Source: Gammaproteobacteria bacterium (lineage in GTDB: Bacteria; Pseudomonadota; Gammaproteobacteria; Eutrophobiales; Eutrophobiaceae). Taken from it: DNA of 64,000 nt. Positions within the stretch are counted from its first letter, which is position 1. The number at the start of each line of letters is the position of its first letter. The translations under genes and the position numbers were made by a program. Below are positions 29,127-49,388 of the stretch, piece by piece. Below the pieces are notes generated by a model that saw nothing but the letters and a program-made list of their open reading frames with translations, searched no databases and was not told the DNA's origin. The stretch lies in contig CBDEUK010000002.1 of NCBI GenBank assembly GCA_965243205.1, positions 928,001 through 992,000 on the forward strand. The letters run 5' to 3'.

Positions 29127-29148
29127 TCAAGTAATTCCTTTTAATGCC

Positions 29149-29193
29149 GCCATATATTGCGTGGTGTTGCTAGGGATACTGCCATAAATTGCG
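29149..29193. promoter_or_regulatory. Pair of operator-like sites GCCATAWATTGCG
   Basis: 29149-29161 and 29181-29193, 32 bp apart, quasi-palindromic, between the divergent 54-aa ORF and XRE gene. Confidence 0.6.
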
Positions 29194-29218
29194 GGTTATC
29201 TCAAATCAATTATGTTCA

Positions 29219-33045: not shown

Positions 33046-34059
33046 TTAGTCTAAAATTTTACAATAGCCACTGTCTAAACCAGCAATGTGCAAACGCTTG
33101 GTGCCTTCAGGACACGCTTTGCAATAACCTTTGTGTTTAAACTGACCTTTCTTACATTTCTTAAGATTGGCGAGCTTTCTGCCTTTTGCATACGTGTTTT
33201 TACCTTTGCGATTCACACAGGCTTTAGGATGATTCATTTTACGAGTAGCACTGGTTCTTTTCATGCCATCAGGACATGTATAGCAACCTTTAGATCCATT
33301 CACTTTTGAGTAATACAAACCTTTGCCTTTACATGAATAACGACTGAATGAAAGTGCTTCTACTTTTCTAGGTTCTTCTTCCTCTTCTTCATCGTAGAAT
33401 TCTTCATCTTCTTCCTCATCAAAATCTCCTTCTTCAAAGCCGCCATCTTCAAAATCATCCTCTTCGTCGTCCTCATACTCATCCTCGTATTCATCATCGT
33501 AATCATCTTCATACCCGTCATCGTCTCCGCCTTCATCCTCTTCGATATCTTCATCTTCTTCAGGATAAGAATCTTCACCCGCTTTTTCACTTTCAAAACT
33601 ATCCTGGTCATCCAGTCGAACAGGAGAGAATGTTAAATTAACTGGGCCAAGCAAACCTTGAATATTCACATTCATTGAACCGCTCGGTGTTAACTTCGCA
33701 GTAAAAGGTCCTACCAGTGGTAAGTCTTGACCAGCGTATTCACCTGGACCAGTTCGAACCCAATCTTTTGAAACCACCATCAATGGTCCAATTTTTAGTA
33801 CAAACATATGCAACCAAGAATCAACCGCATAAGCACGTCCTCTTTCGATGCGAATTCGTTTACGGATTTCATTGATCATCCACTCACCATCGATAGGCAA
33901 TTTGTCAGTCATTGGCACATCTGCCGCCATCGGTAAAAACGCTGGGATTTCTGGGATTCCGGTTGGGTTCGCTTGTACGTTTGGAACTGAAAAACCAATA
34001 ATCATGGCAATCATAGCCAACATCATTTTTATGTTCAGTTTAAGAGCGGTCTTATTCAT
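33046..34059 (-). CDS. Secreted protein: beta-rich N-domain, long D/E tract and Cys-rich domain
   Basis: Paralog of 30961-31953; first gene of the cluster. Confidence 0.85.
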   Translation of the reverse strand: MNKTALKLNIKMMLAMIAMIIGFSVPNVQANPTGIPEIPAFLPMAADVPMTDKLPIDGEWMINEIRKRIRIERGRAYAVDSWLHMFVLKIGPLMVVSKDWVRTGPGEYAGQDLPLVGPFTAKLTPSGSMNVNIQGLLGPVNLTFSPVRLDDQDSFESEKAGEDSYPEEDEDIEEDEGGDDDGYEDDYDDEYEDEYEDDEEDDFEDGGFEEGDFDEEEDEEFYDEEEEEEPRKVEALSFSRYSCKGKGLYYSKVNGSKGCYTCPDGMKRTSATRKMNHPKACVNRKGKNTYAKGRKLANLKKCKKGQFKHKGYCKACPEGTKRLHIAGLDSGYCKILD

Positions 34060-34102
34060 TTTATTCTCCGACTTTTTTTCTGTTTATATGCAAATTGAAT
34101 GT
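33501..34102. repeat. ~600-bp direct repeat, copy 2
   Basis: See 31395-31996. Confidence 0.9.
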
Positions 34103-34155
34103 TTTGGTTATTCAATTAATGTTAGCTATGTTAGAACTGACTGCATTTTATTGAT

Positions 34156-34173
34156 ATGGGGTAAGCACCCCAT
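34156..34173. promoter_or_regulatory. Palindrome ATGGGGT-N4-ACCCCAT upstream of the secreted-protein cluster
   Basis: ATGGGGTAAGCACCCCAT; a second copy lies at 35818-35835. Confidence 0.6.
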
Positions 34174-34238
34174 TTTTATAAAATTATAGTTATTACTTAA
34201 CCTTATATGAGACTGAGTCCAGTGAATACCCTATTCAT

Positions 34239-35744
34239 TTATGTTTCTTGTTTTAGCATCGAAACATAAATGGAAGTACCAACACCCTGTTTTGAACGTA
34301 GCTCAAATGGCAACTCTTGTGCCTCACACAGTGCTTGCACGATGCCTAAACCAAGACCTTCACCATCTGATCCCAGACCTTTTTCACCTTTAAGCAACAA
34401 TGTTGGTTGCACTGCATCAGCAATACCCAAACCATTGTCATGCACTTGAAAAATTACTCGATGACCCTTGCTACGAAAACCCACTAAGATTCGGCTGGCT
34501 TTCGCATGTTTAAGCGCATTACTAATGAGGTTGGTCATAATCCGCATGGTTGATAATGGTTCAACTAGAACCGTGTGTTTACCTGAAAAGAATCGTATTT
34601 GAATATTGTTTTGCTCTGCGTCGCTTTCAAACATTTTACGCAGAGCATTGATCAACATCGAGGTTGAAATAGTTTCAACGCCATCAGCAGAAGTTGGTGT
34701 TTCCGTATCAACTTCATCCGTCAAATATGACCTGGACAAACTATCGATATAATCCACTGCCAAGCTGAGTTTTTCAGCATCGTGTTTTTTATCATGCATT
34801 AATTTTTCAACCGCAAGACGTAATGCTGAGATAGGTTGTTTTAAATCATGAGAAACACTGGCCAGTTGATCTTGATGTCTAGCTGCAACATCAAGTGCTT
34901 TGTTGTAAGCTTGTTCAGATTCAAGCAACGCGAGTTTCATCTCTGCCTCGTTTTTTGCAGACTCAGCCGCTTGTAACTCAGCCATGTCTTTTTGTTGTTT
35001 ATTATTAAACGCTTGCCAAATAACGATCGTTAAAGAAAAGAAAGCAACTAGTAACAATATCACTCGATATAAATCATTAAAGTCATGCTGAGTCGTGTTT
35101 GTTAAAGAGGATAAATACCAATAACCAATCACAGTCACCAAAGCAACAACAATAGGGTACGTTCTGATAAACCATCGTAATTTCTGACTATAACTGTTCC
35201 ATGTTAACGGAGGTAGAAACTGACAAATCACCATGCCAATAAAAAGAATATTCGCTGGCATCCACATCTTAGCTAAAGAGATATTTCCTAACCAAAATAC
35301 AGTACTCATTGCAAACAACAGACTGATAACGGAAAGGATGAAAAACAGTTGTTTAAAGCGGGCTAAAAAATGCGGTAGTTTTATTTGTAAACCAATCACT
35401 AAATAACCATAACTAGAAATCAATGTTGTCAGTAAAAAAGGTAATACCCATAGAATAAAATCATTACTAACAATATTAGTTTTATTGGATGCAAAGTATG
35501 CGAGCGAACCATCGATGGATGATGCATGAATCACTAGTAATAGCGATAACAATACATAAAATAACCATTGAGTTTCTTTGTAGGCGAAAATAATAAGTGC
35601 CGCGAAAGCAATGCCACATAAAGCGAAGGTGTAAAAAATGTAGTCGACTGATTGTGGTACAAAGCTAGCCGTTAACGCAAAAGCATTACTGAAAAACAGC
35701 GGCAAACAAACAGTAATCAATTTACTATAGACATTAGCCCACAA
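34239..35744 (-). CDS. Multi-TM (about 7-8) sensor histidine kinase
   Basis: SVSHDLKQPISAL H-box, NLISNALKH, DNGLGI, GLGLGIV. Confidence 0.92.
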   Translation of the reverse strand: MWANVYSKLITVCLPLFFSNAFALTASFVPQSVDYIFYTFALCGIAFAALIIFAYKETQWLFYVLLSLLLVIHASSIDGSLAYFASNKTNIVSNDFILWVLPFLLTTLISSYGYLVIGLQIKLPHFLARFKQLFFILSVISLLFAMSTVFWLGNISLAKMWMPANILFIGMVICQFLPPLTWNSYSQKLRWFIRTYPIVVALVTVIGYWYLSSLTNTTQHDFNDLYRVILLLVAFFSLTIVIWQAFNNKQQKDMAELQAAESAKNEAEMKLALLESEQAYNKALDVAARHQDQLASVSHDLKQPISALRLAVEKLMHDKKHDAEKLSLAVDYIDSLSRSYLTDEVDTETPTSADGVETISTSMLINALRKMFESDAEQNNIQIRFFSGKHTVLVEPLSTMRIMTNLISNALKHAKASRILVGFRSKGHRVIFQVHDNGLGIADAVQPTLLLKGEKGLGSDGEGLGLGIVQALCEAQELPFELRSKQGVGTSIYVSMLKQET

Positions 35745-35815
35745 AACTCTCGAACCCCTTACTATTTATGATCTAACAAGCTTATGGGAAGTATTCTAAA
35801 AAAACACTTAGGTTT

Positions 35816-35837
35816 AAATGGGGTGAACACCCCATTT
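35816..35837. promoter_or_regulatory. Palindrome AAATGGGGTG-AA-CACCCCATTT upstream of the kinase
   Basis: Same arms as 34156-34173; lies just after the RR stop codon, so a hairpin role is not excluded. Confidence 0.55.
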
Positions 35838-35838
35838 A

Positions 35839-36486
35839 TTAAACACTTTCTAATAAGCCGTCTTTTAATGCTCTAGCCATTAATTCTGAAAATGAATGAA
35901 CCTCTAGTTTAGCCATCAAACTGGTTCGATGTTTATCAACTGTTTTAGGACTGATGCTAAGCATAGTCGCAATGTCTTTATTCGTCTTACCTGACATTAA
36001 CATATTTAAGATCTGTCGTTCACGATTGGTTAAACTCACTGCCTTTCGACCTTGTTCAATCATCTCAACAAACTCAGGTGCAATATAACGAGCCCCACGC
36101 ATTATCTTTGGTATTTGCTCAAACATCTCGTTAAGAGAAGCACTTTTACTAAACAAGCCATCAATGCCAGTTTCAACAATGCTTGCAACTAAACCTGGTG
36201 CGGTAATGCCCGTGAAGATAAGAATTTTCGTATCCGGACTCCAACGTCGAATATCATGAATAATTTCTGAGCCATTGGCTAATGGCATGGAGATATCAAG
36301 AAATAAAATGTTTGGCTTTTGCGACTTAACAAGCGCAATGGCGTCAATACCATTTTCAGCAATACCAACTAATTCAAATTGAATCGTATTAGCTTGCTCA
36401 AGATAATCACTAATAGCTCCACGAATCACTTCATGATCATCAGCAATCACCACGGTATAGATTGAGTCGGCACTTAACATCGTCAT
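35839..36486 (-). CDS. NarL/LuxR-family response regulator
   Basis: IADDH, LDISMP, LTNRERQIL...SISPKTVDKHR. Confidence 0.95.
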   Translation of the reverse strand: MTMLSADSIYTVVIADDHEVIRGAISDYLEQANTIQFELVGIAENGIDAIALVKSQKPNILFLDISMPLANGSEIIHDIRRWSPDTKILIFTGITAPGLVASIVETGIDGLFSKSASLNEMFEQIPKIMRGARYIAPEFVEMIEQGRKAVSLTNRERQILNMLMSGKTNKDIATMLSISPKTVDKHRTSLMAKLEVHSFSELMARALKDGLLESV

Positions 36487-36613
36487 ATATTGTTTAATTT
36501 TATAAACAGATTATCACGTTAAGTTTGGCAATTTACAAACTGTTACTATTTTGAAAAGGCTAGACGAGTTAATATACAGTCAATTGATGGGTTTCAAATA
36601 AAGGTAACTTCAA

Positions 36614-37747
36614 TTGACAGAATCAAACAGCGGTTTACACAAATCAGCGCAACGATTATTTGATCATGCAGGAGTAGTTTTCAATGGAGACAAGCCTTGG
36701 GATATACAGGTTCATAACCCTAAATTATACCGACGAATTCTAACGGGCGGTTCAATTGGTTTAGGTGAATCTTATATGGACGGCTGGTGGGATTGTGAAC
36801 AAATGGATGTCTTATTCGACAAAGTCATTGGTGCTCAACTCGCACAAAAAATAAAAGGCACTGCGCAGTTGGAAATCGTAGGTCGTTTAATTTTAGACTT
36901 TCTTTTTAACCGTCAATCAAAAGCAAGAGCGGTTCAGGTAGCCGATGCTCATTACAACCTCGGTAATGATCTATTCGAAAGAATGCTCGATAGCAGTATG
37001 AATTATAGTTGTGCTTATTGGAAAAATGCCGATTCCCTCGAGCAAGCACAAATCAATAAAATGGAATTAATCTGCCAAAAACTTAAATTAAGCGCTGGCA
37101 TGAAAGTGTTGGACATTGGTTGTGGTTGGGGTGGGCTAGCAAACTATATGGCTAAACACTATCAAGTAGAAGTCGATGGTTTAACCATATCCAAAGAACA
37201 ACAAGCGCTTGCAACGGAACGTAACCAAGGGCAACCTGTTAACATTCGTTTGCAAGACTATCGAGATATGAATGGTCAATATGATCGTATTGTTTCGGTA
37301 GGCATGTTTGAACACGTCGGCCAAAAAAATTACTCAACCTATTTTAATAAAGCCAGCGAACTACTCAGCAAAGAAGGTTTATTTTTACTGCATACCATTG
37401 GCTCTGAAGTCACATCAACCACAACTGATGGTTTCATTCAAAAATATATTTTCCCTAATGGCATCATCCCTACTCGTGGTGAAATCACCAAAACCAGTGA
37501 AGATATTCTTAGACTGGAAGACTGGCATAACTTCGGCCCCTATTATGATCTTACCTTAATGGCATGGTTAGAAAATTTTGAAGCCGCATGGTCAGAACTT
37601 AAGAAAGATTACAGTGAACGTTTCTACCGTATGTGGCGCTATTACTTATGTTGCTCTGCTGGTTATTTCCGCTGTCGCGAAGGACAACTCTGGCAACTCG
37701 TTTTTGCACATCCAGAAAACCGTTCACACTACGATAGTGTAAGATAG
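36614..37747 (+). CDS. cfa: Cyclopropane-fatty-acyl-phospholipid synthase
   Basis: GLGESYMDGWW, HYNLGNDLF, VLDIGCGWG, SVGMFEHVG, RMWRYYL. Confidence 0.95.
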   Translation: MTESNSGLHKSAQRLFDHAGVVFNGDKPWDIQVHNPKLYRRILTGGSIGLGESYMDGWWDCEQMDVLFDKVIGAQLAQKIKGTAQLEIVGRLILDFLFNRQSKARAVQVADAHYNLGNDLFERMLDSSMNYSCAYWKNADSLEQAQINKMELICQKLKLSAGMKVLDIGCGWGGLANYMAKHYQVEVDGLTISKEQQALATERNQGQPVNIRLQDYRDMNGQYDRIVSVGMFEHVGQKNYSTYFNKASELLSKEGLFLLHTIGSEVTSTTTDGFIQKYIFPNGIIPTRGEITKTSEDILRLEDWHNFGPYYDLTLMAWLENFEAAWSELKKDYSERFYRMWRYYLCCSAGYFRCREGQLWQLVFAHPENRSHYDSVR

Positions 37748-37830
37748 AATAACTATAAGAATGGGTTTACAAAGCTTTACCAAATATCACTAACTTTTTT
37801 AAGCTTACTTTAAATTTTTAATTTATTCTT

Positions 37831-39342
37831 TTAGTTAATATTTAATTTTTGCAATACATCTTTTATAGGTATTAGATTATTTATATTCGTAGAGCCACCG
37901 CCTCTAGTAACGTATCCAGAAACTGTAATACCGATAACATTTCCATATTCATTAAACACTGGCCCACCTGAATTCCCGGGATTCACTGCTGCATCCGTTT
38001 GTAGATAATCAAGGCTTTCTAATTCTCTTTTTGCAGAGATAATTCCTTTGCTAATAGAAAAATCAAGTTGCTCATCAAGTGGGGTTCCAACAACATAGAT
38101 AGTTTCGCCAAGTTCAACTGGATTTTTTTCAATATCAACAATAGACATGTCATAGTTATCTTTAATTTTAAGTAGTGCAACATCACGCATTTTATCTTTA
38201 TATAAAATTTCAGCTTTAAACTTCTTACTGTTGATAATCAATATCGCTTCAGAACTACCAGAGACAACATGTTCATTGGTAACGACATATCCATTTTTAT
38301 CAATTACCAAACCACTGCCATGGCCATTTTTTGTCCTAACAGTTGCGGTTGCATTACGAATATTTTTAATTTTCTCATTAAATTTTTTCTCTGAGCTACC
38401 ATATTGAATATTAACAATATAATTTGTTATAGATTTTTTATCTTTTTCATTTTTAACCGTATTAGAATTAAATAACTCTACAAACTTTTTATTTGATAAA
38501 AGCTCCTCTATTGCATGATGAAAAGCCAGGCTTACGCTAAGAATAGTACCTTGAGATCTGGGCGGCTTTTTAAAGCCTAAATCTGTACCTTTTGATTCAC
38601 CTTTAAAAACTATTTCTCTTGATAAATTATCGAAAACTTCCCATTTCACATTTATAAAAGTTGAGTTTTGAGTATAGCTCTTTAGACTAATAGCATTTGC
38701 TTTACCACAATATTCTAAACGAATCTCTGTTATCTCAGCGGCTAAACTTAAGTCACTATTGCTAGTATCTTGCATAGCAAACTTCTTATTCTCTGCGCCT
38801 ATCGTCTGATATCCATTTTTATTAAATGATTTTTGAAAAGGTTCTTGGAAATCTGTCGATTTAATAATCGTTTTAGCATTTGATAAATTTAATTCACCAT
38901 CGGGCAAACAAGCAAAGGGGCTGGTAAGAACTTTCTCATTTTTATATAAGTTTCTAATCTTTTTTTCATCATTTTTTGAATATTTAAATGCTTTGCCAAC
39001 TATAGGATTTTCACCAAGTCCTAACCCACCAATTTCTAAAGAAACATGCTCAAGACTTATTGATTTAGAAGAATCGGAAACATTTTTAATTGGTTTTGGT
39101 TTGGGAAGCAACGGAATTGATTTTGCATTTGAAGAACGATTATTATTTTTAATATCGACTTTATTAGTTTGTTTCTTTTTTGAAGAAGGCGGCTTATCAG
39201 AAAAATGAACTTTGCCATTCTCATCAACCCATTTATAAACTTCAGCTTTTGTAGTGAATGAGAAAAAAATGAAGCACAATACGGGAGTCGTTACGAAATA
39301 ATAAAGATACTTATTATCCATAATAGAAAAAAACCTTATCAT
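37831..39342 (-). CDS. DUF4124 + trypsin-like (S1C) serine protease
   Basis: VYKWVDENGKVHFSDKPP; TNEHVV, DVALLK, NPGNSGGP. Confidence 0.9.
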   Translation of the reverse strand: MIRFFSIMDNKYLYYFVTTPVLCFIFFSFTTKAEVYKWVDENGKVHFSDKPPSSKKKQTNKVDIKNNNRSSNAKSIPLLPKPKPIKNVSDSSKSISLEHVSLEIGGLGLGENPIVGKAFKYSKNDEKKIRNLYKNEKVLTSPFACLPDGELNLSNAKTIIKSTDFQEPFQKSFNKNGYQTIGAENKKFAMQDTSNSDLSLAAEITEIRLEYCGKANAISLKSYTQNSTFINVKWEVFDNLSREIVFKGESKGTDLGFKKPPRSQGTILSVSLAFHHAIEELLSNKKFVELFNSNTVKNEKDKKSITNYIVNIQYGSSEKKFNEKIKNIRNATATVRTKNGHGSGLVIDKNGYVVTNEHVVSGSSEAILIINSKKFKAEILYKDKMRDVALLKIKDNYDMSIVDIEKNPVELGETIYVVGTPLDEQLDFSISKGIISAKRELESLDYLQTDAAVNPGNSGGPVFNEYGNVIGITVSGYVTRGGGSTNINNLIPIKDVLQKLNIN

Positions 39343-39397
39343 GATTAAAAAGAATAATTATAGGCTGATTTCATGCCAATATGCACTATTTCTATAA

Positions 39398-39426
39398 AAA
39401 TTAAAGCGCTATGTCCTCTTTAATTT
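39398..39426. repeat. REP-like site A
   Basis: AAATTAAAG-CGCTATGTCCT-CTTTAATTT. Confidence 0.6.
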
Positions 39427-39570
39427 CTGATTTTTTTAACTACTTAGTTCTTGAGATAATATATTTTTTTAAGCGGTATATGATTTGGGTAAGGAGTAAA
39501 GAATTTTCATATGAAACTTGGATTCAAACTATCAAGAAAAGATTTTAAGAAAGCGAAAAAATAATATTGA

Positions 39571-39593
39571 AAAGAGCTCAGCCCCCTTTAATT
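39571..39593. repeat. REP-like site B (contains the stop codon of 39588-40406)
   Basis: AAAG-AGCTCAGCCCC-CTTTAATT. Confidence 0.65.
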
Positions 39594-40406
39594 ATTATTA
39601 CTAACTACTGATTTTCTAATAAACACTAGCAACATTGCCAACACCACTAAATATATGGCTGGAATAGGGATCTGTTCTACTTCTGGTTCTGGTTCTGGTT
39701 CTGGAATTTCAATTGAGAACTGGCTGCTGAGTGTTGTATTAATCTGATTTTGAGTCAGACGTTCACCTGGGTTAGCTGTGCCAGACGCGGACATCAGGTT
39801 CTGCAGTTCACTCGGTGGATGCGGTAAACCAAGGTTATGCCCAATCTCATGAGCAACCACACTGGCAATGACTTCCCGACCACCTACAAAGCCCAGTAAA
39901 TTCGCACCTACGTATTGTGTAATGCCATTGCCACCTATAGAAGCGAGACCCGCTGCGGAATTGGCGGACAATAAAGGAAACCCTGCAGCAATTCGTACGA
40001 AGAACATATTAATGACTGTAGGATCCGAATGGGTAATGCCTGCCGCTTGAGCATCAAGCCGAATGATTGATAGCTCACTGGTTGAACGAGAATTGCCGTT
40101 ATTGTTCGGTGGTCCACCTGCCCCCCAGTTCGCAAACGTATTATTCCAACTGACTGGCGTAAGAAACTCCACATCAATACCCGCCTGTGCCCAAACAATA
40201 TCAACAAACTGTTCTATCTCTTCCTGTTGTGCAGAATTGCCAAAATAAGTTGCCGTGTTAGCGCCATTGTCATCGGAAAGAATGATCGGCTGAACTCTAA
40301 CAGTGTGAGTAATTGGCTGTGGCGGATTCGTGATTAATGCCGCGTAAACAATTAGCGGCACTACTAATAGAACAGGTAAGAAAGGCAATAAACGATGAAA
40401 CGACAT
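39588..40406 (-). CDS. Secreted metzincin-type zinc metalloprotease with C-terminal sorting tail
   Basis: HEIGHNLGLPH plus NLM Met-turn; PEPEPEPE linker, then IPIPAIYLVVLAMLLVFIRK. Confidence 0.88.
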   Translation of the reverse strand: MSFHRLLPFLPVLLVVPLIVYAALITNPPQPITHTVRVQPIILSDDNGANTATYFGNSAQQEEIEQFVDIVWAQAGIDVEFLTPVSWNNTFANWGAGGPPNNNGNSRSTSELSIIRLDAQAAGITHSDPTVINMFFVRIAAGFPLLSANSAAGLASIGGNGITQYVGANLLGFVGGREVIASVVAHEIGHNLGLPHPPSELQNLMSASGTANPGERLTQNQINTTLSSQFSIEIPEPEPEPEVEQIPIPAIYLVVLAMLLVFIRKSVVSNNN

Positions 40407-40422
40407 ATCGGTTACCCGCTTG

Positions 40423-40800
40423 TTATGGGCAGACCATGTCAGTCACTTTCATGACAATGACATTCGATTCTGAGTTATAGCTATTCTGATCGAGTGTGAG
40501 TTCACCCATATAGATATCATCACATTCAGGCTCTGTTTGACTTTGCTTTGAGGCAGTAGCTTGAATCGTCACCGTCTCAGATACAGGTTCACTGATTTGC
40601 CATTCACTGCAATCATCGTTCATGCAGCTTAGATAATGCTTCTTTTGAGGTGCTGCCGTCTGAAAACAACGAAGCATTTCAATATCAATAGCCTCACCTT
40701 GTTCATCGACTGCTTTGGCAGTCAAACTGTAAGTCGGTTCAGCAGAAGCTTGTGCGCTAAAGATAAGACATAAAATAGAGGCAATAATGAGATGTCGCAT
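40423..40800 (-). CDS. Secreted hypothetical protein with several Cys (start probably 40800)
   Basis: MRHLIIASILCLIFSAQASA signal peptide; GGAG RBS before 40800. Confidence 0.7.
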   Translation of the reverse strand: MRHLIIASILCLIFSAQASAEPTYSLTAKAVDEQGEAIDIEMLRCFQTAAPQKKHYLSCMNDDCSEWQISEPVSETVTIQATASKQSQTEPECDDIYMGELTLDQNSYNSESNVIVMKVTDMVCP

Positions 40801-40951
40801 CAAGATGCTCCGTCGAGTGTTTATTTGGCAAAAAATTATCGTAACCATCAATAAAAAACAAGCAGATAACTTTTAGAATGTGATGAGGTTCAGTGTTATG
40901 TTCTAGACGATGAAATCAGGCAATTTATGATATTCCTTTATTGATTTAACT

Positions 40952-41932
40952 TTATTTATCTCTAGATTGTTCAGCCATTATCCTGTCAATATTAGATATT
41001 TGAGCTTCATTTTTTAGCTCGACAAAGAGTTTTCTTGCAGTCTCTAATGTATTATTCGATTCGCTAATCAATCCTTTCTCTCTTAGTATCAAACCTATCG
41101 TTAAATATTCTGTGGCGATTGCTGGTTTATCTTTATAGTCAAAATAAATATCCAGAGCCAGTTTGGAAAATTTTTCAGCTTGATCAAATTTTTTCTGTTT
41201 TAAATATAATTTCCCTAAGCCCGTATAATTAAGTGCTAATCGATGACTGTAGTTAGTTTTTATATTGAGTTCGGCACTATCAAGATAATTTTTTTCAGCT
41301 GAATCCTCATCACCTTCTTTTGCATCTATCATTGCAAAATTGTGATACAAGGATGCTATACCACTTTCATCGTTAATTTCTTTATAATATTTCATTCCAT
41401 TTTCATAGCTTTCTCTCGCTTTATTGAGTTTAACCAAACTATGATAAAGATTTCCAAGGTCATGATAATCCGAAGCAAGTTCTAACGCTGAGTGATTGTT
41501 TTTATCATTACTTATATTTTTTAAAAATAGTGCTTCAGATTTATCTATCTGATGAAGTTCTCTATAGATATTGGCTAGTTTGCGATATCGACTTCTTTGA
41601 TGCTTATGTAATCCAGCCTTATCACTAACATCAATTGCTTTTGTGTAATATTTTCTCGCTTCTTCAAACTGACTTAAATGGTAGTAAATGTCACCAATAT
41701 TATCCAAAGCATGAATTTTGTAGTCAGGAAATTGATCTGACATTTCAAGTAATTTAAATCTGGCTTTTAATCCTTCATTTAATTTATTTTGATTAAGCAA
41801 ATCTGTCCCAAAAATATCCATTTCTTCTAATTTAGATAATCCTGAATTATTGCTTTCAATCTCTGAATTTGCAGATGCACCAAAGCATCCTAAAATTGAG
41901 ATAATAATAAATACAAAAAGGATATCTCTCAT
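40952..41932 (-). CDS. Exported tetratricopeptide repeat protein
   Basis: Repeated NIGDIY/DLGNLY/GLGKLY...A.....AL TPRs; N-terminal hydrophobic signal. Confidence 0.88.
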   Translation of the reverse strand: MRDILFVFIIISILGCFGASANSEIESNNSGLSKLEEMDIFGTDLLNQNKLNEGLKARFKLLEMSDQFPDYKIHALDNIGDIYYHLSQFEEARKYYTKAIDVSDKAGLHKHQRSRYRKLANIYRELHQIDKSEALFLKNISNDKNNHSALELASDYHDLGNLYHSLVKLNKARESYENGMKYYKEINDESGIASLYHNFAMIDAKEGDEDSAEKNYLDSAELNIKTNYSHRLALNYTGLGKLYLKQKKFDQAEKFSKLALDIYFDYKDKPAIATEYLTIGLILREKGLISESNNTLETARKLFVELKNEAQISNIDRIMAEQSRDK

Positions 41933-41991
41933 TTCATTTTCTGAATTTTATTTATCGTTTTCAAAATGAAAAAAATAGTTACACTAAATAA

Positions 41992-42600
41992 TTAACCAGA
42001 AGTAGCTACCCTTAGGATGTAACTAATGCCTTCATCAAATAATTTTTTGATTCTAGTTGTATATTCTTTATTTTCAGATGGAAAATTTAAGAATTTCAAA
42101 TCTGAATAAACAAATTCACCCGTATAATCAAAAGCTTTACCATTGACTGTGCCTGTTAATTTTAAGCGAAAAAAATCTCCTGCTGCTAAACCAGGAATTC
42201 GATAGGTAACTGGGCCACTTGAAACAGATGCAACTGCCGCAGCAGTCGCGATAGCAGCAGCTTGTTTTGCACTATCATCACAATACTCAACGGTTTCGTA
42301 TGTATTTATTTTAATTTCGAATGTCTGATTGGATTCAGAATCACTCGCTATTCTATTTTTTAAATAACTTAATTTTGTTGGCGCAATAAAATCATCTCCA
42401 TACCATCTAGAGCAGGTCGGAAATTCGCCAAAATAAGTGGTTTTCGATTCTTCAGCCCTATTATCAATAATACTAATATTATTTATATCAGCTCCTAACT
42501 CCCCTTTATCCATAAGTGTTACTTTTTGTGAATAAGCACAAGCACTGATAAAAGAAATTAATACTATTAAGGTAAAAATATTCTTCATTTGGCCCTCCAA
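41992..42600 (-). CDS. Hypothetical lipoprotein (start probably MKNIF at 42588)
   Basis: Lipobox ISAC; IIDNR strand; Ala-rich segment. Confidence 0.72.
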   Translation of the reverse strand: MEGQMKNIFTLIVLISFISACAYSQKVTLMDKGELGADINNISIIDNRAEESKTTYFGEFPTCSRWYGDDFIAPTKLSYLKNRIASDSESNQTFEIKINTYETVEYCDDSAKQAAAIATAAAVASVSSGPVTYRIPGLAAGDFFRLKLTGTVNGKAFDYTGEFVYSDLKFLNFPSENKEYTTRIKKLFDEGISYILRVATSG

Positions 42601-42633
42601 TTTAATTTTTTAAATTGTAATTATTTTATCCTT

Positions 42634-42660
42634 TTAAAAAGGCTTTGACTCCTTTAATTT
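42634..42660. repeat. REP-like site C
   Basis: TTAAAAA-GGCTTTGACTC-CTTTAATTT. Confidence 0.6.
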
Positions 42661-42760
42661 TAGTTCTAACAGGTTGATCTAAATATTAATATATGGAAAC
42701 ATATTAATGTTGATAAGTTGTATTTATAAATAATTAACTCTCAAAAGAAGGGATTTTCTC

Positions 42761-43324
42761 ATGCTAATTAAATCTTTAATTATATCCTCAGCTATTTTTG
42801 TTTCATTATCCGTCTCTGCCGAATCAGTTTACTTAGACATAGATACACCTACCTCTGGTAGTGAATTAGATACATCTCCGCTTATAACAAGTTTGGGTAC
42901 TATAAGCTTTATTGGAGTCATTAGTGATTTTACTGATCCTGATTTAACTGCTGTCGGAGCGGCAGGTAATCTTTTAAACATTAATGGGAGTACAGATGAC
43001 TCAGCAACCTTAAGTTTTAGTTTCGATGTTGATTCAGTATCCTTCATTTTCGGTGGGAACGGTGGAGCATTTGATATTGTTGCACGTGATGCACTCGGGA
43101 ACACTATCGATTCTTACTTTGGCTCAACTGATAATGGTGATTTTGCCGGACCTCTGACACTTTCAGGTGGAGGTATAAGAAGCTTGTTTTGGCAAGATCC
43201 AGGCTGGAATTTTGCTGGGATAGATAACATTACTATTTCCACCTCTCCAGTACCAGTGCCTGCAGCAGTATGGTTATTGGGCTCTGCTCTTTTAGGTTTA
43301 TCAGGTTTAAAACGGAAGAAATAA
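42761..43324 (+). CDS. VPLPA-CTERM (exosortase substrate) surface protein
   Basis: Signal peptide; C-terminal VPVPAAVWLLGSALLGLSGLKRKK. Confidence 0.9.
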   Translation: MLIKSLIISSAIFVSLSVSAESVYLDIDTPTSGSELDTSPLITSLGTISFIGVISDFTDPDLTAVGAAGNLLNINGSTDDSATLSFSFDVDSVSFIFGGNGGAFDIVARDALGNTIDSYFGSTDNGDFAGPLTLSGGGIRSLFWQDPGWNFAGIDNITISTSPVPVPAAVWLLGSALLGLSGLKRKK

Positions 43325-43349
43325 AACAATATCTCATCAAATTTATCAT

Positions 43350-43370
43350 GGCTCCTGCAAAGGAGCCTTT
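43350..43370 (+). terminator. Intrinsic terminator
   Basis: GGCTCCT-GCAA-AGGAGCC followed by a T run. Confidence 0.7.
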
Positions 43371-43409
43371 ATTAATTTAATCAAATACCTACTAGTAATA
43401 GCGAAACAT

Positions 43410-43435
43410 ATAAAAATGTTCTGACCTCTATAATT
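43410..43435. repeat. REP-like site D
   Basis: ATAAAAA-TGTTCTGACCT-CTATAATT. Confidence 0.55.
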
Positions 43436-43441
43436 ATTTTT

Positions 43442-43606
43442 CTAACTCAATAAACGATTCATTTCCTTAGCCAACTCTTCGAGTTCAGCCGCATACATTT
43501 GCAAAATAAGTGCGCCCACCAATCCAGGGAAGTTCTCCTTCATTTCCCATGAAATAACATCCAACCGTTCTGAAATTTCAAAAAGCATGAGTTTTTTCTC
43601 GTTCAT
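43442..43606 (-). CDS. Unannotated 54-aa protein, copy 2 (MNEKKLMLFEISERLDVISWEMKENFPGLVGALILQMYAAELEELAKEMNRLLS)
   Basis: AAGGA RBS; same length and frame as copy 1. Confidence 0.85.
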   Translation of the reverse strand: MNEKKLMLFEISERLDVISWEMKENFPGLVGALILQMYAAELEELAKEMNRLLS

Positions 43607-43642
43607 TTAGGTAAATCCTTTTTCCACAATGCAAAAAACTAT

Positions 43643-43696
43643 TTATGTTCACATGTGAACATAAGAATAACACATGATTGTTCACTTATGAACAAT
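43643..43696. promoter_or_regulatory. Pair of operators TGTTCA-N4-TGAACA
   Basis: Perfect 22-bp palindrome TTATGTTCACATGTGAACATAA (43643-43664) and ATTGTTCACTTATGAACAAT (43677-43696); cores 33 bp apart. Confidence 0.75.
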
Positions 43697-43713
43697 TAAG
43701 TGGGATTATTTTT

Positions 43714-43911
43714 ATGGATCTATCTACTCGACTTTCGGAGAATCTTAAAAAGAGAAGAGGAAAAATGACGCAAGAGGAATTTGCCAAAAAACTTAAAATT
43801 AGTAGAGCAACTTTAACTAGGTTAGAAAACCGATCGCAAAACGTAACTCTCAGTACATTAGAACAAATAATAAAATCACTAAAGTGTGATATTGCTGATA
43901 TTTTTAATTAA
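43714..43911 (+). CDS. XRE-family HTH regulator
   Basis: LKKRRGKMTQEEFAKKLKISRATLTRLENRSQNVTLSTLEQI; ATG 43714 preferred because TTG 43678 lies in the operator. Confidence 0.9.
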   Translation: MDLSTRLSENLKKRRGKMTQEEFAKKLKISRATLTRLENRSQNVTLSTLEQIIKSLKCDIADIFN

Positions 43912-43919
43912 TTAAATTT

Positions 43920-43968
43920 TTACTCTGACCCCAAATATTCAATATAAAAGACGCCGCTCTCTTTAATT
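43920..43968. repeat. REP-like sites E and F
   Basis: TTACTCTGACCCC (43920-43932) and ATAAAA-GACGCCGCTCT-CTTTAATT (43944-43968). Confidence 0.6.
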
Positions 43969-44328
43969 TTAAAATTTACCATTGATTAAAACTATAGGTA
44001 TTCCAATTATTATTGTTACTAAAAAAGTATAAAAAAAGAAAAAAAATATGTTTCTATAAATATTGCTTATTAGTATGAAATTTTTATTGTGAGTTTCTAT
44101 ATAGTTTTTATGCCATATAAATTTCAATACATGTCCATTATTATCATCTTGAAAAAAAAAGAGTGGCAGTTTGAACACAATATTTTTATGTGGTGAGGAT
44201 GACAATAAATATCTTCCTAATAAAACATAGAGAGTATTCAATATAAAAATATATAGAGACATTACAAACATTGAAGAAAGTACAATAATACTTAATACAA
44301 TAATTATGATATCTGCTATTTCAGACAT
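43969..44328 (-). CDS. Very AT-rich two-TM hypothetical membrane protein
   Basis: Hydrophobic N- and C-terminal helices; bracketed by REP-like sites. Confidence 0.55.
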   Translation of the reverse strand: MSEIADIIIIVLSIIVLSSMFVMSLYIFILNTLYVLLGRYLLSSSPHKNIVFKLPLFFFQDDNNGHVLKFIWHKNYIETHNKNFILISNIYRNIFFFFFYTFLVTIIIGIPIVLINGKF

Positions 44329-44369
44329 TTATTTTTCTAAATTTTCCAAAGAATTTTATTAAAAAAAAC

Positions 44370-44413
44370 ATTAAAGGGGTCTGCCTCCTTTAATTGATTA
44401 TTACTCTGACACC
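44370..44413. repeat. REP-like sites G and H
   Basis: ATTAAAG-GGGTCTGCCTC-CTTTAATT (44370-44395) and TTACTCTGACACC (44401-44413). Confidence 0.65.
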
Positions 44414-44420
44414 AATTAAT

Positions 44421-46718
44421 CTAATTTAAACCAAGCTCTTGTTTCTTTCTATTAAAGTAAAAAATATCAGCTGTTCTGTTTTCTGTTGCAGATAATTCGA
44501 GTGCTTTATCTATATATTGGTTTATAAATTCTTTTGATACCTTTTCGTTATCTGCTTCATATAATTCAATTAATGAAATTACAAGCGGTTTTAAATATGG
44601 AGATGGAAAAGTATAACTAGGCTCAATTTGAATAGTTTTCAAAAAATACCTAGCTCCTTCTAATTTATCGCCGTACTGTGTTTCGAATAAACCCAAATTT
44701 GCCCAATATGTAGAAATCTCAGGACTAATTTCAGCTGCTCTCTTAGCGGAATTTATCATTAAGTCAATATCAGGATCTTGCATATCCCAACAAACTAGAG
44801 AAATTTGATTTTCAATAGCAGAAGAAAATATACCTCGTTCTTTCATATCATAATAATCTTTAATTGCTCTATGATATTCACCAGCATTTCTGTATTGATA
44901 AATTAATCCTCTAGCTACATCAAATGAAAAATCTACATAATTAGATTTTATATATTTTGCATATACAGCTGAATAATTTGAAAAATCTAGGGCCCATTTA
45001 TTATCAATACTGATGTTAAGCCCTTGCTCTTCTGTAAAAAATGATTTGTATGAACCAATTGCTATTTCAGCTTTATTATTCATTGCTGATTTCACATTGT
45101 TTATAATTTCTTTAATCTGTTTGTTAAAAATAAGTATGTTATTTCTTCCTTTTATCAAACAACAGAATTCTGTTTCAGAATTTTTTGCTATATATCCCGT
45201 ATCTGATATTTGTTTTTTCAACTCTTCATACAAAATAGCTAAACATCTATTAATTTCTGAAAGGCCAAGTTTCTGTTTCAAATCAACTTCATTCAAAATG
45301 AAAAAAACATAAGATGCTATTTCTATTTTATTGTTTTCACTTTCCTCTAATATCTTCTGTTTTGATGTAATATCTTCATCATGAAAAAACTGATCATGTT
45401 CAAAAAGATGAGTAATAGATCCTAAAGGAACTGCTTCAATTTCATACCCTTCTTTAAATGTATGTTTTTTTCTGTTTTCTGAAATTTTACAAAAAGAAAT
45501 TTCTGGCTGGACATCAGTGGCAATAATAGTTCCCAAAGGAATCTTTGGGCACATACCTAGAGATCTAATGGTGCGGCCATCATCAATCATATATCTCGAA
45601 TTTCCAGTATATTGGGGATGAAATACTAAGAACTCCTGTCCCTTCAGTACACCTACTTCACCACCAATATCAATAACCACAGTATCAACATCGTAATTAT
45701 GTTCAATAATTTTTCCGTAACTGTGCAGAATTTCATCGAAATCTCTAACAGTATTTCTTCCACCATTTTTAGCACAGTATAATGCTTTATCAGCTTTTTC
45801 TCGTATAGTCCTGACTGGATCTGAGACAGCTATATTTTTTGTACCTGAACCAATTACAAATCCAATACTAACTGTAATTCTTCGCTCAAGTATTGGTGGC
45901 AAAGGTTTAATCTCTACATCACTTTGTTTCTGATTTAACTCGCTTATATCGTTCTCAGATGGAAGCTCCCTACTCCCAATTTCTTCACGTAAAGCTTCTG
46001 CTAATTTTATACAAGAAGTCTTTTCGAAATTACCTAAACCAAAAACAATGAATTCTTCGCCTCCTGGCCTAGAAAAATAAATATCATCAAAATCTTTATA
46101 TTCTTCTTTATAACTATTTATAAACTTTTCAATCCTTCGAGCAAGGCATTTTAAAACAATATCACCATAAACATGTCCATAATTATCATTAACTTGTTTA
46201 AAATGATCTATATCCATCGCTATACAAAAATATTTTTTTGTTCTTACCCCAGCACTTTCAGAACTTTCAGATTGGTCTTTATCATCATCTGAATTTTTCA
46301 ATTCTTCAATAAGTCCTTTAAATATTGAATTTAAAGATTGAACATTTAACAATCCTGTTAAATGATCATGAGTAGCATCAAAACTCTTTTGAGCTCTTTC
46401 AGAACAAAGGTTAATATATTCCTGAAACTTATCTCTGGTTTTTTTAAGAGTATTTTTTTCAAATTTTGCAGCTATAACAGCTTTAAATTCGTTTACTGGA
46501 AAGTATGAAATTGGGTCGTTAGTTGCTCTCCAGTGATTATTGCCTTCTAATATCCTAGATAATCTTTTAGTGGTAAAATTATTATCCAGTTCTTCTTTAT
46601 TTTCTTTATACCACTTATTATCAAAATGCCTATAAACTGATATTGATTCAGACATATCTGATAAATTTTTATCTTTTGCTATTTCTTCTAAAAAAATATT
46701 AAATCTAGTTAATTGCAT
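44421..46718 (-). CDS. Multidomain GGDEF protein with C-terminal TPRs (start probably ATG 46718)
   Basis: DHLTGLLN, MDIDHFKQVNDNYGHVYGD, RPGGEEF, ADKALYCAKNGGRN; TPR-like tail YWANLG. Confidence 0.88.
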   Translation of the reverse strand: MQLTRFNIFLEEIAKDKNLSDMSESISVYRHFDNKWYKENKEELDNNFTTKRLSRILEGNNHWRATNDPISYFPVNEFKAVIAAKFEKNTLKKTRDKFQEYINLCSERAQKSFDATHDHLTGLLNVQSLNSIFKGLIEELKNSDDDKDQSESSESAGVRTKKYFCIAMDIDHFKQVNDNYGHVYGDIVLKCLARRIEKFINSYKEEYKDFDDIYFSRPGGEEFIVFGLGNFEKTSCIKLAEALREEIGSRELPSENDISELNQKQSDVEIKPLPPILERRITVSIGFVIGSGTKNIAVSDPVRTIREKADKALYCAKNGGRNTVRDFDEILHSYGKIIEHNYDVDTVVIDIGGEVGVLKGQEFLVFHPQYTGNSRYMIDDGRTIRSLGMCPKIPLGTIIATDVQPEISFCKISENRKKHTFKEGYEIEAVPLGSITHLFEHDQFFHDEDITSKQKILEESENNKIEIASYVFFILNEVDLKQKLGLSEINRCLAILYEELKKQISDTGYIAKNSETEFCCLIKGRNNILIFNKQIKEIINNVKSAMNNKAEIAIGSYKSFFTEEQGLNISIDNKWALDFSNYSAVYAKYIKSNYVDFSFDVARGLIYQYRNAGEYHRAIKDYYDMKERGIFSSAIENQISLVCWDMQDPDIDLMINSAKRAAEISPEISTYWANLGLFETQYGDKLEGARYFLKTIQIEPSYTFPSPYLKPLVISLIELYEADNEKVSKEFINQYIDKALELSATENRTADIFYFNRKKQELGLN

Positions 46719-46739
46719 TTTTTCTATTAAAATTATATA

Positions 46740-46776
46740 AAAAAACCCCAACACCTTTCGGAGTTGAGGTTTTTTT
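46740..46776 (-). terminator. Intrinsic terminator of the molybdoenzyme gene
   Basis: AAAAAACCCCAAC...TTTC...GTTGAGGTTTTTTT hairpin. Confidence 0.7.
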
Positions 46777-46822
46777 GTTTAAGTGTCTCATCCATGATTT
46801 GTTTGGTTATCCCTTCCCTTTG

Positions 46823-48943
46823 TTAAGCTTGCTCAACTTGAACTAAGTTATCAAAGAACGTGGGAGCATTCCCCATGTCGCAGAATTCACCTGAGCTGGT
46901 GATGTTCACCGTTCCTTTATTTAACTGCCTCCAATAACCTAAAGTAGCAACGACCACACCTTGGTTAACATCGTCCGTTACTTTGGCAACGCCTTCGAAG
47001 GAACCACGGTCGTTAAACACTTTTACGTTATCACCTTCTTTGACACCACGTGAGCTGGCGTCGCTTGCATTGATTAATACAAACTGTTCGCCTTGTGCAT
47101 CTTGTTGGTTTTCCATGTTGGCGTAACACGAGTTTAAGAACGCATGGCTTTTTGGTGTGACGATGTTTAATGGATACTTCGCCGCTAAGTCTGGGTTGGT
47201 TTCTGGACGTTCGTACGGTGGTAAGTAGTCTGGTAGTTCAGGGATATCCTGTCCAGGTTGCATGCCTTCGTACATTTGTCGGAATGGCCCAGCGACAAAG
47301 TTTTTCGCACCTTCAACTTTGAAATGACATTTACCCGTTGGAGTTGGGAAGTTGCCTTCCATATGTGGACGACGGTCATCCTTAGTACCGACGTTTAAAC
47401 GTTCGAAGCCTTTTTCTTTTAAAGAATCGAAACTGATGCCATCACAGGCTGGTGCATCCCAATCCACAAAGTTTTCCAGGCATTCGGTGTCTGACCATTT
47501 TAAGCGGTCTTCATCGTAGCCCATTTTTTCCGCTAAGCGACGGAAGATTTCATTGTTCGGAATCGCTTCTCCTGGTGATTCAATGCACTTCGCGTTGTAG
47601 GTTAAGTACATGTGACCCCAAGAAAGAATGATGTCTTCCATCTCGGCTCCCATTGATGCAGGTAATACGATGTCTGCATAGGATGCGGTATCCGAAATGA
47701 AGTGGTCGGCTGCAACGTGGAATAAATCTTCACGTTCTAGGCCTTGTACTAGTTTATCCGCCTCAGGTGATTGGGTGACTGGGTTAGTGTTCCAAGTCAT
47801 GACTGATTTGATCGGTACGTTTAAGTCCTGCTCGCCTGTTAAGGCACGACCTAATTGCAGAATGTTCACCACTTGCGTGCCTTCTGGGATCCAATCTGGT
47901 CGGCAAATCACATCAAACTTATACGGGTGTTCCCATACTGGGAATTGGGTAATACCACCACCCACATGACGCCATGCGCCTGTTAATGCAGGAATGCTGG
48001 TAACCGCACGAATGGTTTGACCACCGCCGTAGTGACGTTCCAAACCCACGCCCATACGAATCGCCGCTGGTTGTTCAGTCGCTAATTCTTTCGCCAGTTT
48101 GCGGATATCTGCGGCTGGAATGCCCGTGATTTCTTCTGCCCATTCTGGGGTGTGTTTTTGCGAGTGGGCTTTTAAGTCTTCAAAGCCTTCAGTGTAGTTA
48201 TCAACGTAGTCTTGATCGACCAGGCCTTGTTCGATGATGCTGTTAATCACCGCCATTGCCAATGCACCATCGGTTGATGGTTTTGGCGCGATGTGCCAAT
48301 CCGCTTCTTTCGCGGTTTTAGATTTATAAGCATCGATAACCACCACTTTGGCGCCTTTCTTTTGCGCTTCTTTCACAATGTGCCAGTGGTGTAAGTTGGT
48401 GCTGACCGAGTTACACGCCCAAATCACAATGTATTTAGAGTGGATGTAACTTTCAGGATCGACACCTGCGGTTGGGCCGATGGTGAGTAACCATGCAGTA
48501 CAAGAACCTTCACCACAGTAAGTACGTTCGCATACAGTCGCACCCATTTTATTGAAAAAGGCATCACCGCCGTTTAAACCATGCACCAAACCTTGGTGGC
48601 CTAAGTAGCTCACAGGCAGAATGGATTGCGGACCGAATTCATCGATTAAGGCTTTCCATTTATCGGTAATGGTATCGAGTGCTTCGTCCCAAGAAATTTG
48701 TTCGAATTGCTTTGAGCCTTTCGGGCCAACGCGTTTCATTGGGTGCAGGATGCGGTCTGGGTGATAGTGGCGGAGTTCGTAATCTTTCAATTTGACGCAA
48801 AGACCGCCGCGCGTCATAGGGTGATCTTTGTTGCCTTTGACCCCGGTTAATTTACCGTCTTCAACTTCGAATACCATTGAACAGGTATCAGGACAATCGT
48901 GTGGACAACCACCGTGGTGGGTTTCTTTCATTACTGCGGACAT
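46823..48943 (-). CDS. Cytoplasmic molybdopterin (bis-MGD) oxidoreductase, uncharacterised subfamily
   Basis: CPHDCPDTC...GGLCVK Fe-S motif, ISWDEALD, TASYADIVLPA, C-terminal binding domain; no Tat signal. Confidence 0.92.
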   Translation of the reverse strand: MSAVMKETHHGGCPHDCPDTCSMVFEVEDGKLTGVKGNKDHPMTRGGLCVKLKDYELRHYHPDRILHPMKRVGPKGSKQFEQISWDEALDTITDKWKALIDEFGPQSILPVSYLGHQGLVHGLNGGDAFFNKMGATVCERTYCGEGSCTAWLLTIGPTAGVDPESYIHSKYIVIWACNSVSTNLHHWHIVKEAQKKGAKVVVIDAYKSKTAKEADWHIAPKPSTDGALAMAVINSIIEQGLVDQDYVDNYTEGFEDLKAHSQKHTPEWAEEITGIPAADIRKLAKELATEQPAAIRMGVGLERHYGGGQTIRAVTSIPALTGAWRHVGGGITQFPVWEHPYKFDVICRPDWIPEGTQVVNILQLGRALTGEQDLNVPIKSVMTWNTNPVTQSPEADKLVQGLEREDLFHVAADHFISDTASYADIVLPASMGAEMEDIILSWGHMYLTYNAKCIESPGEAIPNNEIFRRLAEKMGYDEDRLKWSDTECLENFVDWDAPACDGISFDSLKEKGFERLNVGTKDDRRPHMEGNFPTPTGKCHFKVEGAKNFVAGPFRQMYEGMQPGQDIPELPDYLPPYERPETNPDLAAKYPLNIVTPKSHAFLNSCYANMENQQDAQGEQFVLINASDASSRGVKEGDNVKVFNDRGSFEGVAKVTDDVNQGVVVATLGYWRQLNKGTVNITSSGEFCDMGNAPTFFDNLVQVEQA

Positions 48944-48962
48944 GGTTCTTCTCCTCTGCCAC

Positions 48963-49089
48963 CTGAGAACTCACTGCATTGGCATTACTTTTCTAAAAAC
49001 CCTGCTCGTGTCGGTCGTTTACTTATATGTAAACTCCCTCCCCTCTCAGACCTTTTATCTCGTACTGCCTGCTTCGTATACGTTCTCAG
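48963..49089. mobile_element. 127-bp palindromic MITE-like element
   Basis: Terminal IRs CTGAGAAC/GTTCTCAG, inner GGCATTAC/GTACTGCC, central GTTTAC-TTATAT-GTAAAC. Confidence 0.6.
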
Positions 49090-49202
49090 TAATTACAATT
49101 CAACGATATTATTTTTGTAGGGACATTTTAGGCTGATCCCACAGACATTGCTATGGGAATCGGTCATTCTAAATTACGATATGTTAAGGGTTAGAAAGGT
49201 AC

Positions 49203-49388
49203 TTAGGAATATAGCCCGCAGCATTTTTTATATTTACGGCCGCTATCACATGGGCAAGGGTCATTGCGACCGACTTTAGGTGTTGCACGTACGATGGGGC
49301 TTGGCGGGGCACAGCAACTTTCATCGTTACAACAAGGTTCTTGGCTTTCAATCGGTTCCTTGCTTGATGATTTATTTTCTTCGATCAT
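49203..49388 (-). CDS. Small SEC-C motif protein
   Basis: [21 protein letters not shown]; ATGA-coupled to tal. Confidence 0.85.

Follow-up and report, generated by a model that had tools for sequence, protein, structure and literature searches.

The window analysed here, that is, the whole 64,000-nucleotide stretch C2:928001-992000, belongs to a gammaproteobacterial genome of 2,793,537 bases in 2 contigs (36.7% GC), is itself AT-rich (35% GC) and carries mainly chromosomal signalling and metabolism genes. Within it, a block of about 5 kb (39398 to 44413) holds small genes and eight short related sites, all of which are intergenic, one of them overlapping a stop codon by 6 bp. We propose, with a probability of roughly 0.7, that these sites are diverged and mostly inactive relics of a family of repetitive extragenic palindromes (REPs) that is associated with REP-associated tyrosine transposases (RAYTs), and that they lie in an accessory patch; eight puzzling sites would thereby be annotated as REP relics. 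They are listed below together with their predicted fold as single-stranded DNA (ssDNA) and their score in a covariance model (CM R2), which was built from 14 copies from relatives and none from this genome and was run as an unfiltered scan of the window; the canonical 19-mer and 21-mer to which mismatches refer are taken up further down.

39403..39425, plus strand: REP relic s1, found by the pattern AAAR-N11-CTWTAATT; fold -4.5 kcal/mol, z -3.4; CM R2 15.2 bits, E 0.45; its stem AATTAAAG/CTTTAATT (39398-39428) lies 60 bp upstream of the start of a trypsin-like gene and 162 bp past the stop of the Zn-protease gene
39571..39593, plus strand: REP relic s2, overlapping the stop of the Zn-protease gene 39588-40406(-); CM R2 18.5 bits, E 0.048, best on the minus strand; as DNA its fold is no better than shuffles; flagged as terminator-like on the minus strand
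42637..42659, plus strand: REP relic s3, between the divergent genes 41992-42600(-) and 42761-43324(+); CM R2 17.6 bits, E 0.088; no significant fold
43413..43435, plus strand: s4, the weakest relic, of the CTATAATT form, 6 bp past the stop of the 54-aa gene 43442-43606(-); five mismatches to the 21-mer canon; absent from the CM R2 list at E<=10; no fold
43920..43945, plus strand: half site 1, the loop and 3' arm of a REP lacking the 5' arm, unpaired; 13 nt before s5; no fold
43946..43968, plus strand: REP relic s5, abutting the stop of the 119-aa open reading frame (ORF) 43969-44328(-); CM R2 13.1 bits, E 1.8; no significant fold
44373..44395, plus strand: s6, the best-preserved copy, 25 bp past the stop of the GGDEF gene; CM R2 30.9 bits, E 1.3e-5; fold -6.1 kcal/mol, z -3.5; terminator-like; two mismatches to the 19-mer
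44401..44413, plus strand: half site 2, 5 nt after s6 and 7 bp from the GGDEF stop; no fold

Searched on both strands and with 100 shuffles as control, the pattern AAAR-N11-CTWTAATT gave seven matches at six places in the window (39403, 39571, 42637, 43413, 43946 and 44373), the seventh being the 39403 site read on the minus strand; the shuffles averaged 0.42 matches with a maximum of 3, and none of the 100 reached 7. The rest of the window holds no further match, and 7 of the 17 matches in the 2,793,537 bases of the genome fall within this 5 kb. The initial annotation, made from the letters of the window, had described six sites of the form AAA(G/A)-N11-CT(T/A)TAATT confined to this block; all of them are present, with starts a few bases off as flank had been included, they do not recur elsewhere in the 64 kb, and a scan of the genome, which it had called for, finds them clustered here. 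Each site is a small palindrome, (AATT)AAAG...CTTT(AATT), around a core near GGCTCTGACCC. With up to four mismatches to the 21-mer canon, the genome contains seven hits against three for the reversed control, namely five window sites (one of them on both strands) and one strand of C2:1054274; one similar copy lies elsewhere in the genome, at C2:1054272. About nine family copies remain in this genome, six to eight of them in this 5 kb. The two additional TTACTCTGAC(C/A)CC sites noted before are likewise found at 43920 and 44401, although the 10-mer alone is not above chance (7 found versus 2.08 expected when one mismatch is allowed, with 1 of 100 shuffles reaching 7). The first 17 nt of half site 43920 are identical to a half site that stands 6 nt past a REP hairpin in a Halioglobus metagenome-assembled genome (MAG; locus L091), and the layout of hairpin plus half site seen in the window occurs in L091, L018 and L095 as well.

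The sequence AAAGGGGTCAGACCCCTTTAATT was found in a relative of another genus, near an orthologous oxidoreductase gene, and we therefore searched for the canonical form of the hairpin, AAAGGG[G/C]TC[T/A]GA[C/G]CCCTTT, often with AATT behind it, which amounts to a short G+C stem between an A run and a T run. This form is present with up to three mismatches in 9 of 41 relatives (reversed-pattern control, 0) and with up to two mismatches in 51 of 126 genomes of the family, mostly in 1-12 copies and at most in 31, the reversed control for the family search giving at most one per strand in about 20 genomes. The exact 19-mer AAAGGGSTCWGASCCCTTT occurs in at least 126 stretches of a species-representative collection, where about 17 would be expected at equal base frequencies, and the matching records, to go by their titles, come from Halieaceae, Woeseiaceae, Acidobacteriota, Sandaracinaceae, Alphaproteobacteria, Mariprofundaceae, Planctomycetota, Actinomycetota and Clostridia. 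Among the 126 listed loci, 94 have a single copy and 32 have several, 27 of these 32 in both orientations as inverted doublets 5-60 bp apart. Both the loop and the imperfect stem (a C opposite a C in the GGGC...CCCC form) are conserved over genera and phyla. Judged from these matches, the hairpin represents a widespread RAYT-associated REP family of low copy number, whose core hardly changes between AT-rich proteobacteria and Acidobacteriota, Myxococcota and Clostridia; the usual description of REPs is that they are specific to a species. The label 'REP-like' and the spacer consensus GGCTCTGACCC that had been given to the window sites were well chosen, the consensus being the core of the hairpin that flanks RAYT genes in relatives and distant phyla. 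The core sequence was not found in the main text of PMC2817692, PMC3733652, PMC6006769 or PMC5581495, whose supplements may list REPs, and string matches elsewhere were unrelated primers. As a separate observation, the exact 19-mer is present in 22 stretches of viral contigs, and the 37-kb predicted viral contig IMGVR_UViG_2596583602_000001 carries at least seven copies.

In other genomes the family is linked to RAYT genes. At one locus (L059) an inverted pair of copies encloses a 217-aa ORF that is a Y1 transposase (Y1_Tnp, PF01797, E 2e-12), and a tblastn search with two RAYTs showed that 9 of the 126 listed loci, which amount to six distinct places in five classes, have a homologue no more than 1 kb from the motif. 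Within the family, RAYT genes stand between inverted copies at L022 (G004), L272 (G076) and L275 (G024), a variant pair (GGGGTCGGAG / CTCCGACCCC) flanks the RAYT of L155 (G008), and a one-sided copy adjoins the RAYT of a same-genus genome (L276). Inverted copies around RAYT genes are the defining layout of REP elements, and the sequences at these loci conform to it. RAYTs in general recognise REP-type hairpins on single-stranded DNA, and by analogy the same may hold for the present hairpin family.

Only a single Y1 transposase is encoded in the genome under study, by a RAYT-like gene of 233 aa (C2:172995-173696) that adjoins xerD and lies 795 kb from the sites; it scores 48-49 bits with Pfam, above cut-off, and 72.7 bits with NCBIfam REP_Tyr_transpos, under the cut-off of 80. 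Its nearest homologues in relatives (L151, L152 and L153; 36-38% identity) are likewise devoid of flanking copies. In the window itself tblastn detected no Y1 transposase or RAYT remnant (best E 0.5), as the initial annotation had stated, and copies bounding a tnpA gene in the manner of IS200/IS605-type insertion sequences (ISs) are not seen there. The idea that a RAYT/HUH enzyme acts on the sites in trans was a good one in that one RAYT exists outside the window and the RAYT link is real elsewhere, but the resident RAYT, 795 kb away, has no such flanks. In a same-genus genome (G001) we counted 17 matches to the RAYT protein across many contigs, several with in-frame stops, versus one here, and from this distribution the RAYT appears to behave like a multi-copy IS in that sister species. 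A count of 14-mers revealed no REPIN-like population (REPINs being REP doublets) in the genome under study; the most frequent 14-mers (58-59 copies) belong to a single long G+C-rich repeat unit that is probably a coding tandem repeat.

The window copies are decayed to different degrees. In the CM R2 scan, sites of the initial annotation take ranks 1-5 in the window, with hits spanning 44365-44399, 39563-39597 (minus strand), 42629-42663, 39395-39429 and 43939-43972. When folded as ssDNA, two of the six sites (39403 and 44373) beat their shuffles, and the four others and both half sites do not. Differences from the canon, read by eye from the alignment, are mostly G/C-to-A/T changes in the core with the A/T flanks intact, an erosion that would fit neutral decay in an AT-rich genome; the site pattern itself selects for intact flanks. 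The copy at 44373 belongs to the REP family; on their sequence scores, three further copies are plausible members and two are weak ones, and since these scores are not individually significant, the membership of the weaker sites rests on the shared pattern and flanks and on clustering. That all sites have the same orientation had been claimed as well; they can all be read on one strand, but orientation is weakly defined in a near-palindrome, and s2 scores better on the minus strand.

Several observations weigh against regarding the sites as REP relics. Only 44373 is individually significant by CM R2, the others having E-values of 0.05-1.8 and 43413 being unlisted. The resident RAYT has no motif copy in its flanks, and no flank 14-mer occurs more than four times in the genome; among the RAYT loci of relatives, 7 of the 11 best have neither motif nor half site, and the RAYT link therefore holds for a subset of RAYTs only. 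Copy number is far under that of classical REPs, and the window contains no doublets. An intact CTTTAATT flank beside an eroded core could reflect selection on the flank for another function. Finally, arrival together with foreign DNA is conjectural, the sole homologous protease pair known from our searches (G403, see below) having no REP, and the role as terminators considered next may hold on the strength of consensus scans only.

That the best copy belongs to the family, that the family is tied to RAYTs in other genomes, that the sites cluster and that they have decayed is all observed; a history compatible with these four points would be that the copies arrived with these segments, or were seeded during their acquisition, and that no cellular enzyme now acts on them. 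Their present role would be modest, as weak terminators or 3'-end stabilisers. Weak termination is conceivable because four sites lie 0-25 bp past minus-strand stops, each with a stem followed by a T-rich run on that strand, and a terminator scan flagged two of the six sites as terminator-like (39571 on the minus strand, and 44373). Measured individually, the distances to the four minus-strand stops are -6, 6, 0 and 25 bp, in agreement with an earlier reading that placed the stop codon at 39588 inside a site, the one at 43969 against a site (distance 0) and the one at 43442 at 6 bp; the remaining two sites are upstream of genes.

The genes in and next to the block are as follows.

Start 60 bp from site 39403, which lies upstream of it: trypsin-like gene
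39588-40406, minus strand: Zn-protease with a PEP-CTERM-like tail (Pfam)
Within 39588..44328: a 142-aa gene and a TPR gene (Pfam scan of the block)
Within 39588..44328: a 202-aa gene (Pfam scan of the block)
41992-42600, minus strand: gene divergent from 42761-43324(+)
42761-43324, plus strand: 187-aa PEP-CTERM protein
43442-43606, minus strand: 54-aa gene, paired with an XRE gene
43678-43911: XRE-type helix-turn-helix (HTH) regulator, inside the site cluster
43969-44328, minus strand: 119-aa ORF with two transmembrane (TM) segments
44421-46754, minus strand: GGDEF gene

The GC content of the site-bracketed genes varies from 0.21 to 0.45 within the block, in keeping with the differing base composition remarked upon before. 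The Zn-protease has no homologue in the 125 other family genomes and a single one among 400 genomes of the class (G403, a member of a different family), where the pair of 142-aa gene and protease is conserved. PEP-CTERM-like tails are seen on the Zn-protease 39588-40406, the 187-aa protein 42761-43324 and the G403 protease homologue, and from these tails one may suspect that the block is not random cargo but encodes exosortase substrates. A protein search of the five nearest genomes returned missing or distant matches only for the trypsin-like, CMAS and GGDEF genes of the flanks. The patch is accessory and mosaic, because its GC content runs from 21 to 45%, the protease is rare and the flank genes are poorly conserved. 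No syntenic DNA match to the block exists among 40 relatives, and a metagenome scan with the GGDEF protein gave generic GGDEF matches at about 30% identity and no close relative, so that DNA relatives, public runs and metagenome contigs yielded no usable close relative. Since the flanking-gene matches in the five nearest genomes are distant or missing, no indel breakpoints are readable. The stretch is present in four public runs of one sample and next to absent from three runs with the same species label. One contig from the public runs covers 34058-49242 and shows no joint at the sites; since rare variants are dropped from contigs, this is uninformative on capture.

Two features of the neighbourhood stand apart from the sites. 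The 54-aa gene has a paralogue at 28962-29126 (92% amino-acid identity; 85% nucleotide identity over 181 bp), and in each of the two modules, 28962-29461 and 43442-43911, the 54-aa copy is divergent from a different XRE-type HTH gene, the two XRE proteins giving no alignment with each other; the pair of 54-aa and XRE genes may be a small toxin-antitoxin-like or regulator module. The molybdopterin oxidoreductase at 46823-48943 of the window has 47% GC, and its protein is 85-86% identical to genes of two other genera while its best match in a same-genus genome reaches only 34%, which on sequence identity makes it a candidate for lateral transfer. The window contains no tRNA, a permissive-threshold Rfam search of 36-48 kb found nothing at the sites, and blastn of two site regions against a plasmid collection gave no match.

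The initial annotation had taken the sites for active points of recombination or insertion in a gene-capture hotspot with an integron-like layout, at which an enzyme encoded elsewhere would move cassettes in trans. Such a hotspot would account for the crowding of the copies, of which six to eight out of about nine in the genome share a single 5-kb accessory patch with varied base composition, and for the four sites at stop codons, where cassette sites would be, and the genome does possess one RAYT and an integron integrase. We nevertheless consider it unlikely: the hairpin is lost in four of the six sites, the resident RAYT is without such flanks and groups with RAYTs that lack them too, the attC sites of the integron are of a different kind and their model is silent at the sites, and the G403 protease pair is conserved without a site. 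The picture of sites that divide the genes into blocks is correct in that all eight are intergenic, but a site is missing at 4 of the 10 places where genes meet between 39.3 and 44.4 kb, and the sites therefore do not separate every gene from the next. Outside this genome, the only two copies of G015 bracket a 0.5-kb insert of 26% GC between bamE and rnfH (L016 4886-5431, G015:C48); they form an inverted REP pair around an insert that encodes a 103-aa two-TM ORF, and the bamE and rnfH alignment ends are 558 bp apart in G015 and 9-99 bp apart in nine other genomes, while a tenth, with 423 bp, simply has a longer bamE. A possible 31-aa hydrophobic peptide lies upstream of the 103-aa ORF, which gives no BLASTP alignment with the 119-aa ORF of the window. 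Direct pairs further bracket a small membrane ORF (86 aa) in L091 and small ORFs in L050. The G015 cargo, however, has a homologue in 0 of 125 other family genomes and hence no second context from which mobility could be read, and the cases of G015, L091, L050 and L274 (the last described below) are few and hand-picked, fitting insertion targets or travel with imported DNA as well as cassette mobility. Gene capture via the sites is thus an unproven and doubtful proposition. A bolder version, which we hold to be improbable, is that REP hairpin pairs bound small cargo modules that are moved or captured as units, the window being a decayed array and the G015 insert a fresh example; movement would proceed via a RAYT on single-stranded DNA or via insertion into REPs. 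If true, REP-pair cargo would be a non-integron capture route with a hairpin core shared across phyla. Where a genome has few copies, these tend to be found around insertions specific to its lineage.

The positions just past four stop codons, the two sites that pass the terminator scan and a canonical form with the symmetric shape of a bidirectional terminator would also suit ordinary intrinsic terminators that resemble each other by convergence of an A run, a G+C stem and a T run, with neither common descent nor a transposase. This we regard as very unlikely, since convergence does not explain a loop and an imperfect stem conserved over genera and phyla, unpaired half sites accompany the hairpins, two sites are upstream and not downstream of genes, and the same sequence flanks RAYT genes, an association on account of which common descent is favoured. 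Operators for a DNA-binding protein, such as the XRE regulator at 43678-43911, with AAAG and CTTTAATT as half sites 11 bp apart, would explain why the flanks are far better conserved than the centre and why an HTH gene lies inside the cluster. Yet four of the six sites are at 3' ends and not at promoters, the centre matches a repeat family of other genomes, and no site accompanies the 54-aa paralogue at 28962-29126, which is paired with an XRE gene of its own, making operators highly improbable. Descent from RAYT-associated REPs, followed by decay in an accessory patch, accordingly remains the reading that we prefer.

The true integron of this genome is located 980 kb from the window, with intI at C2:1953332-1954291 (TIGR02249, 503 bits) and, behind it, some 9 kb of small same-strand ORFs that have classical attC sites. 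The whole element (C2:1953332-1963400, L269) is chromosomal and complete, with about 17 small same-strand ORFs and eight classical attC sites; in the distal half of the array, attC sites are apparently no longer recognisable. An attC is an imperfect palindrome of 50-150 bp with R''(RYYYAAC) and R'(GTTRRRY) cores. A model built from these eight attC sites (R1) recovers all eight at 57-82 bits and finds nothing at the eight window sites, its best window hit (15 bits, E 1.7) lying elsewhere. The sites are therefore not attC-like, as had been surmised, and we reject their identity with attC sites of an integron or of a cluster of attC sites lacking an integrase (CALIN) on the grounds of this missing match, their length of 19-27 bp without R''/R' cores and the lack of an adjacent intI or attI. 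Apart from the integron, C1:12000-32000 (L267), with two tyrosine recombinase genes and primase-like and HerA-like ATPase genes, is probably an integrated mobile element.

How, then, do the sites compare with known systems? CALINs are, reportedly, attC clusters without an integrase, and the window resembles them in its same-orientation sites at the ends of small, unrelated, promoter-poor genes, but differs in the size of the sites (19-27 bp versus 50-150 bp), in the missing R''/R' cores and in an intI that is 980 kb off. ISs are said to target REPs, and a comparable case is L274 3053-4235 (G024:C177), where an IS30-family transposase gene (HTH_38 and rve) lies between two direct REP copies that share about 27 nt of flank, with a REP doublet adjoining; the element seems to have landed in a REP, and REPs can therefore serve as landing sites. 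The window block, in contrast, has no IS or transposase gene.

REPs are short imperfect palindromes (20-40 bp) that can fold into a hairpin, as the canonical form here clearly does, and typically exceed 100 copies per genome, a number that the roughly nine copies here fall well short of. According to the main text of Nunvar 2010 (PMC2817692), REPs flank rayt genes as inverted repeats and may be clustered locally, as described in marine gammaproteobacteria, and units of REP and RAYT (TnpA-REP) are termed 'REPtrons' in the main text of PMC6006769. To judge from these texts, the present element is alike in being a short extragenic imperfect palindrome, in flanking a Y1/HUH gene as an inverted pair elsewhere and in its local clustering; it differs in a core that is common to phyla and not species-specific, and in a cluster 795 kb from a RAYT that is without flanks. 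Tagged REPs carry a terminal GTAG or CGTC, and untagged families exist (Di Nocera 2013, PMC3733652); neither tag is present in the alignment of the 14 copies from relatives or in the window sites. REPINs, as outlined by Bertels and Rainey 2011 (PMC3116915), are REP doublets that form hairpins, and going by that outline the inverted doublets 5-60 bp apart in other genomes are similar to them, whereas the window copies are single, in one orientation and mostly decayed, with no doublet. Group 1 RAYTs, in the account given in the main text of Bertels 2017 (PMC5581495), occur in wide taxa including Proteobacteria and Clostridia, have few repeats and reach several copies in some hosts; by analogy with these described traits alone, the present RAYTs, with a similar spread, few repeats and multi-copy hosts, may be likened to Group 1.

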